From Escherichia virus TH15: a stretch of DNA of 64,000 bases. Position numbers and translations under genes: made by a program. Within the stretch, counting starts at the first letter, position 1. Each line of letters opens with the position of its first letter. This document shows positions 17,517-54,382 of the stretch, one piece after another. The DNA lies in sequence record MT446392.1; one strand, 5' to 3'. The notes beneath the pieces were generated by a model. The model was given only the letters and a program-made list of their open reading frames with translations. It was not told the DNA's origin and searched no databases.

Positions 17517-17813
17517 ATGGACCTTATTCGAGGACTTTCTCTAAGTCTATTACTAATGGGCTGTTTAGGCCCAAATCTGTCCTCTGCTACAGATGGTAAA
17601 TTTACCCAGTATGCAGATAGTGCGATGCAAATCTATTCGCAATTCAAAGAACCCAGCGTCGAGCAGTCCGAACAATTTTGGGCTTTTATTAAAACCGAAT
17701 GGAACAATAAGAGTCAATGTGTAAATGAAATCACATGTCAAATTGATGGCCGGGCTGCTGCAGTCGAATACGCTAAATTAATGAAGGTAAAATTGGAAGA
17801 TGAAATTCGATGA
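17517..17813 (+). CDS. rI: lysis inhibition regulator rI
   Basis: Signal-anchor then EQSEQFWAF...AAAVEYAKLMKVKLEDE resembles T4 rI; position next to tk. Confidence 0.75.
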   Translation: MDLIRGLSLSLLLMGCLGPNLSSATDGKFTQYADSAMQIYSQFKEPSVEQSEQFWAFIKTEWNNKSQCVNEITCQIDGRAAAVEYAKLMKVKLEDEIR

Positions 17814-18183
17814 TTTCGTAACAGGTCGTGGGTCTGAGGTGGATTCATACATTGGGTGGCTATTAACCTCTTTAGCATATTTTAAGTCCGCCCATCTTGA
17901 AACCAAAAGTTACGCCCGCCATAAAGCTTATGATTTCTACTTCACAGAAATCCAAGGTCCACTCGACCAGTTCAGTGAGCAATGGTTAGGTTACAGCGGG
18001 AAACAATACAAAGCTGCATTACCGTCCGCCTCGGACTTGCCGAAAGATACAATTTTGTTTTTAGATGAAATGATTAAAAGCTCGGAAAGAGTCTATAAAG
18101 TTGTACCCAAGGCTATTCAATCGACTCTGGACGATATCGTTGGAGTTTTCTTTCAGACTAAGTATCTGTTAACACTAGAGTAA
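17800..18183 (+). CDS. hypothetical protein
   Basis: 127-aa ORF overlapping rI end. Confidence 0.5.
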   Translation: MKFDDFVTGRGSEVDSYIGWLLTSLAYFKSAHLETKSYARHKAYDFYFTEIQGPLDQFSEQWLGYSGKQYKAALPSASDLPKDTILFLDEMIKSSERVYKVVPKAIQSTLDDIVGVFFQTKYLLTLE

Positions 18184-33367: not shown

Positions 33368-33459
33368 TAACATGGACGGCGGGCTAATGAAAGACGAACA
33401 TCCAGATTTTTAAGAGGTCATATGAATGACGAGTACGAAAAAGTTTAAGAGACTACGTT

Positions 33460-33633
33460 ATGATGAATTCGACGGATTTTGATAAGATTAAATCTGACAA
33501 AAATGAGATGATGCTTCAATTTGAAGCCGCTCGTATTAAAGCAGAAAATGAAGGTACTATTACCTATAAACCCATCAAGTTCAAGTCTTCTCATGAACCT
33601 CTGTATGGTGTATTAATTGGAAAGGAAGCCTAG
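33460..33633 (+). CDS. hypothetical small protein (57 aa)
   Basis: ATGATG start, weak SD; stop inside terminator hairpin. Confidence 0.3.
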   Translation: MMNSTDFDKIKSDKNEMMLQFEAARIKAENEGTITYKPIKFKSSHEPLYGVLIGKEA

Positions 33634-33646
33634 TGCTTCCTTTTTT
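33623..33646 (+). terminator. rho-independent terminator
   Basis: Stem GGAAGC/GCTTCC then T6. Confidence 0.6.
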
Positions 33647-33670
33647 GCTTTATAGTCGGGATGATAAAAT
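33644..33670 (+). promoter_or_regulatory. T4 middle-type promoter (MotA box)
   Basis: TTTGCTTTA, 12-nt spacer, -10 TAAAAT; upstream of gene 47. Confidence 0.5.
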
Positions 33671-33690
33671 GAACCAACTGAGGAGAACAT

Positions 33691-33834
33691 ATGGAATTAT
33701 TTTTAGGATATGTCGTGTTATTCATGGCATTCTACACATTCACACGAACTTGTTGGATAGGATTCTTTTCTACTCCTGACGGGTTCATCTCATTAATTTT
33801 ATTTTGCATTGCGATAACGGCGCTTGGCTTATGA
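33691..33834 (+). CDS. hydrophobic small membrane protein (47 aa)
   Basis: ATG after TGAGGAGAACAT; ATGA overlap with gene 47. Confidence 0.4.
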   Translation: MELFLGYVVLFMAFYTFTRTCWIGFFSTPDGFISLILFCIAITALGL

Positions 33835-36779: not shown

Positions 36780-36802
36780 GCCTCTTATTGAGGCTTCATT
36801 TT
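36779..36802. terminator. bidirectional terminator hairpin between convergent genes
   Basis: Stem GAGCCTC/GAGGCT(T)C with T-rich flank. Confidence 0.5.
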
Positions 36803-37501
36803 GCAGTTATCAAAATGCCAACGTTTCATATTAGCTGGTGTACCGACTACATTACAGTGTGGACACTGAATTTTGGGGTCCACCTTTTTCTTCCGGTTTG
36901 GATTGGATTTGCAGAATTGTCGGTGAGTGGATATAACACACTTTTTACCTTCAATACCACAAAATTCACAAGTTAAAATTTCATGTTTAGCTTGTTTTAA
37001 TCCTACTGAAATTTTTTGCTTTCGTTCTTCTGAAATAGTATGAACAACCTTGTTTGGACCTTTGGAACAGTTATCAAAATGCCAACGATTCATATTGCCA
37101 ACGAGACCGGTTTTTCCACAATGTGGACATTCAACTCTCGGTTTTAATTTGGCAGATTCTGACATTTTCTTTCTGGTTTCATCGGAGAAAATTTTATTTT
37201 GTTGAGCTTCCAAGTTTTTACGACGAAGCCATCCAAATAATTTGTTTTTGCTTCTGTCGGTGTTTGGTGCAGAAACTGTCATCATGCGTGCGGCATAGAC
37301 CAAAGAAGCATTATTTGGATGCATTTTGACCAACAGTTGATGACAAACGAAATGTTCCTCGGGAGTTAAATCAACAAGATTTGAAGCGTCGTCTGCCCCA
37401 CCCATACAACGGGGTATAATGTGATGACTTTCAGAGTATGTGGTTAATTTGCGATTCAATGCTCTGCTAATAAGCTTTTGGTAAATGATGTTATAATTCA
37501 T
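36785..37501 (-). CDS. HNH homing endonuclease with zinc-finger repeats
   Basis: SESHHIIPRCMGGADDASNLVDLTPEEHFVCH plus repeated CPHC...WHFDNC; start at internal ATG with AAGGG SD. Confidence 0.7.
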   Translation of the reverse strand: MNYNIIYQKLISRALNRKLTTYSESHHIIPRCMGGADDASNLVDLTPEEHFVCHQLLVKMHPNNASLVYAARMMTVSAPNTDRSKNKLFGWLRRKNLEAQQNKIFSDETRKKMSESAKLKPRVECPHCGKTGLVGNMNRWHFDNCSKGPNKVVHTISEERKQKISVGLKQAKHEILTCEFCGIEGKKCVISTHRQFCKSNPNRKKKVDPKIQCPHCNVVGTPANMKRWHFDNCKMKPQ

Positions 37502-37541
37502 ATCAGACCCTTGTTTGATACTGCAACGGATAATATTATTT

Positions 37542-37733
37542 ATGAGCAATTTTTTAACCGGGCAGCATTTACTGGCTGTCCCCGAAATTAAACGATATGT
37601 GTTAGTTAATACCTTTTCGAAAGATGAACACCTAGTTACTGAACGTGACTTACAAAACGCTTTCGGTGAAGAATATGTTAAAATAATCGCGAACAGACAC
37701 AAAGCCTGGTTCGCATATGAATACTTTGATTAA
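37542..37733 (+). CDS. hypothetical protein (uncertain)
   Basis: 63-aa ORF in divergent intergenic region; weak SD. Confidence 0.3.
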   Translation: MSNFLTGQHLLAVPEIKRYVLVNTFSKDEHLVTERDLQNAFGEEYVKIIANRHKAWFAYEYFD

Positions 37734-52073: not shown

Positions 52074-53102
52074 ATGTCATATATTGATAGAGAATTTGCA
52101 ATCAGAGCTTTATCGTATCAACCACGTTATAGAGAAGTCACCGGGAGCACATTTAAGGCAAACTGTCGTTGTAAGGTTTGCGGTGACTCCCAGAAAGATT
52201 CACACAAGGCCCGATTCTGGGCGTATACCAATCCGTCTGATGGTGCGGTTTACGTGAAATGTTTTAACTGTGACTACTCCACGCATATAAGCAAATACAT
52301 AAAAGAGTTTGAGCCGGATTTGCACCGGGAATATATGGTTGAGAAGTACAAGGAAAACGCCTTCGGTCGACAACGTAATGAAGTTGCAGAAGCTCCGAAA
52401 GAACAAGAAAAAACTCCGGTTATTGAAGAGCTTGCTTTTTGCGAAAGAATCGATACTTTACCAGAAGAGCATCCGATAGTTAAGTATGTAAAAAGTCGGT
52501 GTATTCCGAGCAATGTTTGGAACCGGTTATGGTTTACAAACAAATGGCCTGCATTAGTTAACTCCGTTAATCCTGGGACGTATAAGAATGAAACGAATGA
52601 ACCACGCTTGGTTATTCCTATCTTCAACGGCAAAAAAGAAATCGAATCTTTCCAAGGACGAGCTCTTCGCAAAGATGCACCACAAAAATATATCACAATC
52701 AAAGCTCACCCAGAAGCTTCCAAAGTCTACGGAGTAGACAAGATTGATGAGCGCAAACGTGTGTGGGTAATGGAAGGTCCGATTGATAGTTTGTTTATCC
52801 CTAACAGCATTGCGATAACTGGCGGCACATTGTCATTGGAAGCGGTTCCTTATCCAGAAACCAGAGTATGGGTAATGGACAACGAGCCAAGACATCCTGA
52901 TACGATTAAACGTATGAAGAAGCTCGTTGAGGCTGGTGAAGCCGTTATGTTCTGGGATAATGCGCCATGGCATACAAAAGACATAAATGAGATGGTTAAA
53001 TCAGAAGGGGCAACCCCTGAACAAATCGAATCATATATGGCTGATAACGTTGCCCAAGGGTTGATGGCAAGAATGCGACTTTCGAAGTACGCAAAAGTTT
53101 AG
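52074..53102 (+). CDS. 61: DNA primase gp61
   Basis: 342 aa; zinc-binding CRCKVCGD...CFNCDY, C-terminal TOPRIM; matches T4 gp61. Confidence 0.9.
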   Translation: MSYIDREFAIRALSYQPRYREVTGSTFKANCRCKVCGDSQKDSHKARFWAYTNPSDGAVYVKCFNCDYSTHISKYIKEFEPDLHREYMVEKYKENAFGRQRNEVAEAPKEQEKTPVIEELAFCERIDTLPEEHPIVKYVKSRCIPSNVWNRLWFTNKWPALVNSVNPGTYKNETNEPRLVIPIFNGKKEIESFQGRALRKDAPQKYITIKAHPEASKVYGVDKIDERKRVWVMEGPIDSLFIPNSIAITGGTLSLEAVPYPETRVWVMDNEPRHPDTIKRMKKLVEAGEAVMFWDNAPWHTKDINEMVKSEGATPEQIESYMADNVAQGLMARMRLSKYAKV

Positions 53103-53299
53103 GAAGGGATTCCGGTAAAGTAACCGATGATGGAATGGATATGCTCCATTGTGACCTGGGGTAAGATAACCCCTTGTGTTGCGGCGATAGGCACAACCAG
53201 TAAGTTCCATAGGAAAACATCAAGAGCTAAAAAACCCATGATAAGCTTCTTGTCTTTCTTACTGGTTAATTTCCATATCTGATAGAATAATGTTCCCAT
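53099..53299 (-). CDS. small hydrophobic membrane protein (antisense paralog B)
   Basis: Minus strand; start at internal ATG with GGTGGA SD; paralog of 53308..53505. Confidence 0.45.
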   Translation of the reverse strand: MGTLFYQIWKLTSKKDKKLIMGFLALDVFLWNLLVVPIAATQGVILPQVTMEHIHSIIGYFTGIPS

Positions 53300-53307
53300 A
53301 ATTCCAC

Positions 53308-53505
53308 CTATACAAGGCCGATTAATGCCAGTGAAACATCTACAACTGATTCGAAGGCAACGACTGGAAGCACAAGACCGTGCGCCAGTGCAATCGGTGC
53401 TACAATAAAGTTCCATAAAAGAACTATACCTAGCACAGAAAACGTCAGAATCATTCGCTTGCGACTGCCTTTGATGGCTTGAATTAAACTAGAAAGTTTT
53501 AGCAT
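53308..53505 (-). CDS. small hydrophobic membrane protein (antisense paralog A)
   Basis: Minus strand; strong SD AGGAGG 4 nt before ATG; 65 aa, two TM helices; no + strand ORF here. Confidence 0.5.
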   Translation of the reverse strand: MLKLSSLIQAIKGSRKRMILTFSVLGIVLLWNFIVAPIALAHGLVLPVVAFESVVDVSLALIGLV

Positions 53506-53524
53506 ACATCCTCCTTTCTTTTAT

Positions 53525-53551
53525 TTATGCTTCAACTCAATATGATATAAT
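53525..53551 (+). promoter_or_regulatory. T4 middle-type promoter (MotA box) for gene 56
   Basis: TTTATGCTTCA, 11-nt spacer, -10 TATAAT. Confidence 0.5.
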
Positions 53552-53587
53552 TAACATACAAACAACATGAATTGATAAGGAAAAATA

Positions 53588-54148: not shown

Positions 54149-54382
54149 ATGGGTGGTTTCGTTAATATCAAAACCTTTACGCATGCAGCTGGTGAAGGTA
54201 AAGAAGTTAAAGGTACCGAGGTTTCGGTTCCGTTTGAAATCTATTCTAATGCGCATCGTATTGCTAATGCTCATTATCAGACTTTCCCTTCGGCGGTAGC
54301 GGCCTACTCAACTGTGGTCACTGATGCTGCTGACTGGAAGACCAAAAACGAGGCAATGTTTACGCCGACTGCTATTGTTTAA
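54149..54382 (+). CDS. soc: small outer capsid protein Soc
   Basis: GFVNIKTF...AHYQTFPS..AAYSTV matches T4 Soc. Confidence 0.8.
   Translation: MGGFVNIKTFTHAAGEGKEVKGTEVSVPFEIYSNAHRIANAHYQTFPSAVAAYSTVVTDAADWKTKNEAMFTPTAIV

Follow-up and report, generated by a model that had tools for sequence, protein, structure and literature searches.

The lysis and exclusion systems of bacteriophage T4 are textbook material. T-even phages already carry a holin gene, t, the periplasmic part of the T4 RI antiholin is roughly 70 amino acids (aa) long, and exclusion proteins of the HK97 gp15 type are single-pass and encoded among tail genes. Here, we describe two adjacent small genes, ORF A and ORF B (ORF, open reading frame), on the minus strand of a 64,000-nucleotide (nt) stretch of Escherichia virus TH15 (MT446392.1; the whole stretch is hereafter the window). 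They lie by gene 61 and gene 56, at a locus where one protein family, phrog_2024, is conserved in hundreds of T-even genomes. We read the pair as a late two-gene operon of inner-membrane proteins, caught in the course of an allele replacement and acting on the envelope late in infection, and we put the chances of this reading as a whole at about even. The features on which the argument rests are listed below, with positions counted in the window.

53308..53505, minus strand: ORF A, 65 aa (MLKLSS...), T4/RB69-like subfamily of phrog_2024, with a basic N-terminus, one predicted transmembrane (TM) segment (residues ~18-41) and a C-terminal tail of ~24 aa
53510..53515, minus strand: Shine-Dalgarno sequence of ORF A, AGGAGG, 4 nt upstream of the ATG, as read from the sequence
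53099..53299, minus strand: ORF B, 66 aa (MGTLFYQIWKL...), JS98/Marfa-like subfamily of phrog_2024, its stop overlapping the gene 61 stop by 4 nt
53304..53308, minus strand: ribosome-binding site of ORF B, GGTGG, overlapping the final base of the TAG stop of ORF A
53522..53529, minus strand: late-promoter core CATAAATA, which is the T4 consensus TATAAATA with C at -13; predicted transcription start near 53516
53006..53018, minus strand: weak terminator-like hairpin, AGGGGTTGCCCCT then a T-rich run, within the 3' end of gene 61, 80 nt past ORF B

The window segment 52000-54200 matched Gaprivervirus (VR26, 93.7% identity; VR7, 92.9%), and the records of VR26 and VR7 name the flanking genes 61 and 56 as DNA primase and dCTP pyrophosphatase, respectively. 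This places the window in a T4-like (Tevenvirinae) genome, with early and middle transcription running in the direction of reading. An earlier reading of the letters alone (the sequence-only reading) had proposed two minus-strand genes of about 65 aa each here, the upstream one with an AGGAGG Shine-Dalgarno sequence 4 nt before its ATG. Both points hold. The ratio of nonsynonymous to synonymous substitution (dN/dS) among close relatives was 0.12-0.32 for the two genes, with values of 0.16-0.32 for ORF A against VR7, VR20, and EAWsc9. When ORF B was compared with its orthologues from other genera, the synonymous sites were saturated (proportion of synonymous differences, pS, 0.80-0.97; nonsynonymous, pN, 0.13-0.19), and the differences fell mainly on the third position of the minus-strand codons (for example, 15/4/43). 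From the dN/dS values, the codon-position bias, and the saturated synonymous sites, we conclude that A and B are genuine protein-coding genes. The Shine-Dalgarno sequence of ORF A is kept as AGGAGG or GGAGG in nearly all orthologues.

The program-made ORF list contained 53308..53505 (minus strand, 65 aa) and 53099..53416 (minus strand, 105 aa), and the start of ORF B is an internal ATG of the latter, at 53299. ORF B was set to 53099..53299 because the orthologues of single-copy phages begin at exactly the same Met, behind a Shine-Dalgarno sequence. The 105-aa frame was rejected as the true gene, given that its first 39 aa read the +1 frame of A and have no counterpart in the single-copy orthologues. 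ORFs A and B are thus separated by a gap of 8 nt. The plus strand between the end of gene 61 (53102) and the start of gene 56 (53588) holds just two chance ORFs, of 51 and 27 aa; a plus-strand gene in this gap was dismissed on account of these lengths and of a codon-position pattern that fits the minus strand, in line with what had been proposed. Across the whole window, the minus-strand ORFs of at least 60 aa that lie mostly outside plus-strand ORFs and have homologue or motif support were only A, B, and an HNH-type endonuclease gene, the same three that the sequence-only reading had singled out. Its placement of the pair between genes 61 and 56 needs one amendment: the intergenic position stands, but ORF B is convergent with gene 61 and overlaps it by 4 nt at the stop codons.

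Both proteins matched the profile of phrog_2024, a known phage family without a described function (ORF A, E = 2e-24, residues 1-65 on profile positions 1-65; ORF B, E = 6.4e-28, residues 1-64). The proposed paralogy of A and B is borne out by these matches and by BLASTP (41% identity over 41 aa, E = 2e-9). The core W-N-x4-P-x-A-x3-G-x2-L-P-x4-E/D is present in both. Among 155 unique family sequences, the W was found in 155, the N in 153, the P six residues on in 155, the A in 152, the G in 153, the P of L-P in 153, and the E/D in 152. These near-invariant positions map to the helix, in its outer half, and to the tail, and the N-terminus varies freely. The tblastn searches found relatives in 702 phage records with ORF A as query (Tequatrovirus, Gaprivervirus, and others), in 126 with ORF B (Dhakavirus and T4-like phages of Klebsiella, Enterobacter, Salmonella, and Edwardsiella), and in 692 with an RB69-type query, the three sets overlapping. 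Lack of conservation in related phages had been named beforehand as grounds for giving up the two genes; relatives turned out to be widespread. A profile search of 1.84 billion representative proteins returned only 14 clusters, all of 33-69 aa save one repetitive 449-aa protein, which was taken as a spurious match. On this count the family is compact and phage-restricted.

Copies of the family are annotated as hypothetical in RB69 (RB69ORF029w), RB32 (ORF030w), VR7 (VR7ORF033w), and VR26 (gp031/gp032), and the tandem pair is already annotated in VR25 and VR26. A and B agree with these copies in size, in location between genes 56 and 61, and in their reversed orientation, and no structural feature sets them apart. 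The T4 reference (NC_000866.4) carries no annotation in the 309-bp gap between dam and gene 61. This gap holds a 66-aa homologue at 17738..17938 (plus strand; MVQKLMALVNAIKG...), with AAGGAGG and GATAAATA upstream, and the exact T4 homologue sequence was recorded only from raw-read assemblies. The copies in JS98 (NC_010105) and PEi20 (about 1986-2171 of its contig) are also unannotated. Source names of the homologues were either 'hypothetical protein' or evident mislabels. We found no support for the names 'DNA packaging ATPase' (UPEC01, SAKp28, and P8) and 'putative head morphogenesis protein' (T2), nor for 'holin' (OE5505) and 'holin family protein' (EAWsc9). In SHP1, 04086, and dhabil, the match falls under a single listed feature, which bears the name 'thymidylate synthase' or 'dCTP pyrophosphatase'.

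Pfam, NCBIfam, and PADLOC held no match for A, B, the T4 homologue, or one Kanagawavirus homologue, and a Pfam scan of 18 diverse family members gave chance-level membrane matches only. A profile search of PDB sequences produced only weak matches to TM helices of acetylcholine receptors (E = 0.08 or worse), and Foldseek of the AlphaFold model against viral structures retrieved family members only. The A/B region had no match in Rfam. None of these searches gave a lead on function, including the holin or antiholin, superinfection-exclusion, and toxin roles suggested by the sequence-only reading. A full-text literature search found no paper on phrog_2024, and a T4 multi-omics paper mentions nothing at the 61/56 locus. 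A T4 dRNA-seq preprint reports 150 phage transcription start sites.

In T4, T2, RB69, VR7, VR26, three Kanagawavirus genomes, and three divergent metagenomic T4-like contigs, the family gene and gene 61 are convergent and meet at the 3' end of gene 61, where the family gene usually overlaps the gene 61 stop by 4 nt. The other side varies and may be occupied by gene 56, dam, homing endonucleases, or small ORFs. By this synteny, phrog_2024 holds one fixed locus in the enterobacterial T-even phages. The spackle gene was within ~3 kb in all T-even loci examined. Two divergent members occur in non-T4 tailed phages in the same order, which is a tail-fibre/tail-tip gene, a 94-aa protein (hydrophobic segment at the N-terminus, coiled coil), endonuclease VII, and the family member, all on the structural-gene strand. 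The last three of these genes form a conserved trio. This gene order agrees with a gene of a late module. The non-T4 loci are as follows.

Contig L028, 3260-4210: trio with the family member as its last gene
Contig L030, 4263-5153: trio with the family member as its last gene
Contig L031, 2486-3376: trio with the family member as its last gene

In contigs L030 and L031, a GIY-YIG homing endonuclease gene converges on the family member with a 30-nt overlap.

The convergent arrangement raises an alternative in which the ORFs are incidental and a late antisense transcript silences or terminates gene 61 transcription and the read-through into gene 56. The stops are convergent and overlapping in nearly all lineages and weak hairpins occur on both strands near the junction, as such a transcript would have it. 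The selection described above is nevertheless strong, purifying, and directed at the protein, with synonymous sites saturated, residues invariant across 155 sequences, and strong Shine-Dalgarno sites conserved, and the family is also found in phages without the convergent arrangement. We consider this explanation highly improbable: antisense action cannot be the main function, and may be a side effect.

The T4 late promoter is TATAAATA; of the 50 T4 sites in one list, 32 match it perfectly, 9 carry A at -13, and the majority of the others show a different single deviation; variants at -13 are the commonest there (PMC2988020). An element of this type lies ~6 nt upstream of the predicted start of the A-B transcript, at 53522-53529 on the minus strand, as in late genes of the T4 type, which have no -35 element and whose transcripts come up only once DNA replication is under way, in dependence on gp55, gp33, and gp45. 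The sequence-only reading had set the pair against the flow of early and middle genes, with a promoter region at 53506-53587, and it is in this region that the late-promoter core CATAAATA sits; transcription from it is predicted. In every T-even lineage checked, ATAAATA ends 14-21 nt upstream of the ATG (NATAAATA), and the flanks cannot be aligned from genus to genus. Position -13 holds T in Marfa-like phages and some Kanagawavirus, A in Dhakavirus and RB69, G in T4 and T2, and C in the window. Where dam or other genes part the small ORF from gene 56, the motif stays by the small ORF, and it is therefore not a by-product of the gene 56 promoter.

ATAAATA is depleted about threefold in the window, with 8 copies compared with 22.8 +/- 4.8 in 100 dinucleotide-preserving shuffles, all 100 of which had at least 8. 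Each of the eight is followed by an ATG 5-35 nt downstream. For one copy this is the ATG of soc (at 54149), a known late gene that served as the positive control. On the minus strand, the two copies stand ahead of just the two gene units of that strand, ORF A and the HNH gene.

1571, 10137, 17439, 27930, 51851, and 54111, plus strand: ATAAATA sites
37543 and 53528, minus strand: ATAAATA sites
36785..37501, minus strand: HNH-type endonuclease gene, ATG at 37501 (MNYNIIYQKL...), with CATAAATA at 37537-37544, 35 nt before the ATG

A search of the minus strand near ORF A detected no promoter of the sigma-70 type. ORF B lacks an upstream ATAAATA of its own, from which we infer that it is co-transcribed with A. 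Judged from these motifs, A and B most likely form a late bicistronic operon with a start near 53516 and a leader of ~11 nt. The hairpin at 53006..53018 may mark the end of the predicted late transcript; terminator-like sites numbered two in the scanned region against 1.6 expected, which is not significant alone.

Several further observations concern promoters of the window. The eight ATAAATA sites give a simple late-promoter map of it, both minus-strand units share the same late-promoter variant CATAAATA, and another copy of the motif precedes a small ORF just upstream of gene 61 (ATG about 51874). On the plus strand, positions 53525-53551 read TTATGCTTCA, 11 bp, and then TATAAT, 37 nt upstream of gene 56, and fit the consensus of a MotA-box middle promoter (PMC2988021). 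The MotA box shares 4 nt (53525-53528) with the minus-strand late core, so that the two divergent promoters stand back to back in a compact region, and a similar arrangement is seen in RB69, Dhakavirus, and contig L025. In T4, according to a note in the T4 record itself, the gene 56 transcript primes the origin oriA.

The two copies differ in their affinities. ORF A shares 46-48% identity with the T4 and RB69-type (Mosigvirus) proteins, and ORF B shares 76-80% with those of Dhakavirus and Marfa; the overall identity between A and B is only 26%. A recent duplication in place was rejected because of this low identity and because each is closer to single-copy proteins of other genera. In a survey of Gaprivervirus, in which full-length matches were sorted by matched length and by their translations, ORF A was intact in all records. 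ORF B was intact in VR25, VR26, P479, TH41, TH44, UPEC01, MN01, and the window, and it was broken in about 20 phages by at least five independent lesions, including the following.

VR7: +1 frameshift in B
VR20: -2 frameshift in B
DK-13 and RZ: 26-nt deletion in B
SP18 group: ~97-nt deletion in B
EAWsc9 group: 3' part of B lost

The recurrent loss of B with A kept, which has occurred in most relatives of TH15, shows, for the genomes compared, that B is dispensable where A is present. The pair fits a replacement in progress, in which an allele of the T4/RB69 type would have been placed upstream of a resident, decaying gene of the JS98 type. Members of Kanagawavirus also differ in type: ZX14 is B-like (62-66% identity), and the type of Kosakonia phage 305 and PEi20 is 33-38% identical to that of ZX14. 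The presence of different subfamily types within this one genus suggests that alleles move between genera at the 61/56 locus.

The products are small and hydrophobic, as had been said of them. The N-terminal ~17 residues of A and B carry five Lys/Arg (+5), the C-terminal ~23 residues have no Lys/Arg and one or two acidic residues (charge 0 to -2), and only residues ~18-41 are sufficiently hydrophobic to span a membrane. Simple sums on the Hessa scale gave -1.1 kcal/mol for the best 19-mer of A and +3.3 kcal/mol for that of B. AlphaFold2, with a 28-sequence alignment, placed helices at residues 3-13, 15-41, and 51-61 (mean pLDDT 71). From hydropathy, the distribution of charge, and the modelled helices, the topology is likely to be single-pass, N-in/C-out, with a periplasmic tail of ~24 aa. 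The sequence-only reading had described double-TM proteins, which does not survive: on the Hessa scale the last ~24 aa total +4 to +9 kcal/mol, members throughout the family have E/D, H, Q, K, or Pro-Pro there, and the model shows a loop and a short helix after 15-41. A second TM segment was rejected on these grounds. An Asn inside a membrane helix drives helix-helix association in model helices. By this analogy, the conserved Asn suggests oligomerisation or the binding of a membrane partner.

Taken together, these data support a small inner-membrane protein that would be made late, present a conserved surface on the periplasmic side, and probably act by helix-helix contacts. In the explanation that we favour, RNA polymerase with gp55 would transcribe A-B late from CATAAATA at 53522-53529 with a very short leader, and B would be translated directly after the stop of A. 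Each product would be an inner-membrane protein of ~65 aa with a basic, predictedly cytoplasmic N-terminus, a TM helix bearing the invariant Trp-Asn pair and the invariant Pro, and a periplasmic tail of ~24 aa with G-x-x-L-P-x4-E. The two would be deeply diverged alleles of one locus, B of the Dhakavirus type and A of the T4/RB69 type, that probably share the same job. The membrane-embedded Asn would promote helix-helix association, either self-association or pairing with a partner protein on the periplasmic side of the inner membrane, and the protein would act on the envelope in the late phase. Our leading guess, a speculative one, is that it tunes the timing of lysis by holin T; lysis control ranks first among the functions considered, though even so it is more probably wrong than right by a clear margin of belief.

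A number of points weigh against this explanation. The promoter in the window has C rather than T at -13, and the predicted leader, at ~11 nt, is very short. In some subfamilies the TM segment has marginal hydrophobicity, and in B it contains a conserved Asp and has the positive Hessa sum given above. Scans of Pfam and PHROG found no similarity to T, RI, spanins, or any holin family, there is no charged C-terminal tail, and the extensive screens for rapid-lysis (r) mutants of T4 are not known to have reported this locus. In addition, the TM segment ends in a P-x-A-x-[A/S/T] pattern that is compatible with the -3/-1 rule of signal peptidase I, and the protein might be cleaved or released.

This last motif leads to a different account, in which the N-terminal ~41 residues are a long cleavable signal peptide or a releasable signal-anchor and the active product is a free, hydrophobic, slightly acidic periplasmic peptide of ~24 aa. 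The layout is that of such a precursor, with a basic n-region, a hydrophobic core that in some subfamilies is marginally hydrophobic or rich in Gly/Ala/Ser/Thr, an invariant Pro at -5, Ala at -3 (152/155), Ala/Ser/Thr at -1 (152/155), and then the conserved tail. However, the Trp (155/155) and Asn (153/155) lie within the core, where a disposable signal peptide would not be expected to conserve them, the core of 18-24 residues is in the signal-anchor range, and the Thr found at -1 in 59 of the 155 is a poor cleavage residue. We regard release of the peptide as very doubtful.

The conserved core also bears on a proposal that the protein inhibits a host inner-membrane protein, whether a defence effector, a protease, or an enzyme of envelope synthesis, through the outer half of the TM helix and the periplasmic tail. 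T-even phages and unrelated tailed phages share this core, which speaks for a target in the host more than for a partner in the phage, and a polar Asn in the helix fits specific helix-helix binding. The adjacent 61.x region of T4 holds several anti-defence genes, which we count in favour of this proposal. Late timing, on the other hand, would be unusual for counter-defence, and no match was obtained in PADLOC or in any characterised family; we think such an inhibitor quite unlikely.

Just as unlikely, in our estimate, is a late factor of superinfection or DNA entry, which would block or sense the ejection of a related phage genome or feed the lysis-inhibition signal. In its favour, the predicted single-pass N-in/C-out topology resembles that of single-pass exclusion proteins encoded beside the tail genes of temperate phages, the non-T4 family gene follows tail-fibre genes, the spackle gene is close by in the T-even loci, and divergent alleles that are swapped between genera and stacked in tandem form the pattern of specificity or conflict genes. 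Nonetheless, Imm and Sp of the T-even phages are early and the family gene has only a late-type promoter, its most conserved part hardly varies between subfamilies, which suggests a constant target, and scans of Pfam and PHROG found no similarity to any exclusion family.

A more novel reading is that the protein is an unrecognised, nearly universal late component of the envelope in enterobacterial T-even phages. It could have a role in the control of lysis or lysis inhibition, and it might act as a releasable or cleaved membrane segment that supplies a periplasmic peptide of ~24 aa, or by binding a conserved host inner-membrane protein. We hold this reading to be unlikely, although less so than the three proposals just set out.

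That the family is annotated as hypothetical in close relatives was already known; the conserved late promoter, the fixed locus across genera, the absence of the gene from the T4 reference, and the evidence for the pair as a replacement in progress are new here. If an effect on lysis timing, exclusion, or host range is true, a component would be added to a model system that is supposedly complete, and if deletion has no phenotype, the gene would be one more conserved hypothetical. The tandem A/B with recurrent loss of B would also be a clear-cut case, found in nature, of one allele replacing another at a fixed locus of a phage.

Two other parts of the window were also noted. Positions 865-1603 (739 nt) contain no ORF of at least 50 aa on either strand and hold tRNA-Met (943-1016) and tRNA-Arg (1151-1226); within 1227-1570, nothing was identified by ARAGORN, or by Rfam at gathering scores. 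In 33368-33803 (436 nt), upstream of a gene 47-like nuclease ORF (start 33804), the plus-strand ORFs are all of 57 aa or less.

With regard to known systems, the holins (T4 T, T7 gp17.5, and other small holins), which make the inner membrane permeable in a timed and lethal manner, share with A and B their small size, at least one TM segment, and, for A and B by prediction, late expression. Unlike holins, A and B have a C-terminal 24 aa that is hydrophobic-amphipathic, contains 0-1 basic residues, and is predicted to be periplasmic, with no charged cytoplasmic tail, and they lie beside the primase and dCTPase genes, not beside an endolysin or spanin gene. No significant match to a holin family was obtained in Pfam, NCBIfam, or PHROG, the best being GTA_holin_3TM (E = 0.081, 2 of 18 members). 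The 'holin' labels in two public records are not supported, given the lack of a charged tail and of a family match, the orientation of small holins of the T7 type, which is opposite to the predicted N-in/C-out, and the presence of T in these phages.

Type I toxins such as Hok and TisB resemble A and B in size and hydrophobicity but differ in that A and B have a phage late promoter, a strong ribosome-binding site, and a locus fixed in lytic phages; no antisense RNA gene or Rfam match was found at the A/B region. A toxin-antitoxin-like role is unlikely in view of the late promoter motif and the fixed synteny. The exclusion proteins, T4 Imm and the morons of the HK97 gp15 type, are likewise small inner-membrane proteins. 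Neither type has sequence similarity to A or B (for Imm, from Pfam/PHROG scans), and Imm is early, whereas A and B have only a late-type promoter; with the HK97 gp15 type, the family shares a position among tail genes in its non-T4 homologues. The T4 RI antiholin, whose periplasmic domain binds holin T, differs from A and B in sequence, with no similarity in Pfam and PHROG scans, in its locus, and in the length of its periplasmic part, which is ~24 aa in A and B. What A and B have in common with RI is the general plan of a small T-even envelope protein, with a weakly hydrophobic N-terminal membrane segment and a C-terminal part that, for A and B, is predicted to lie in the periplasm.

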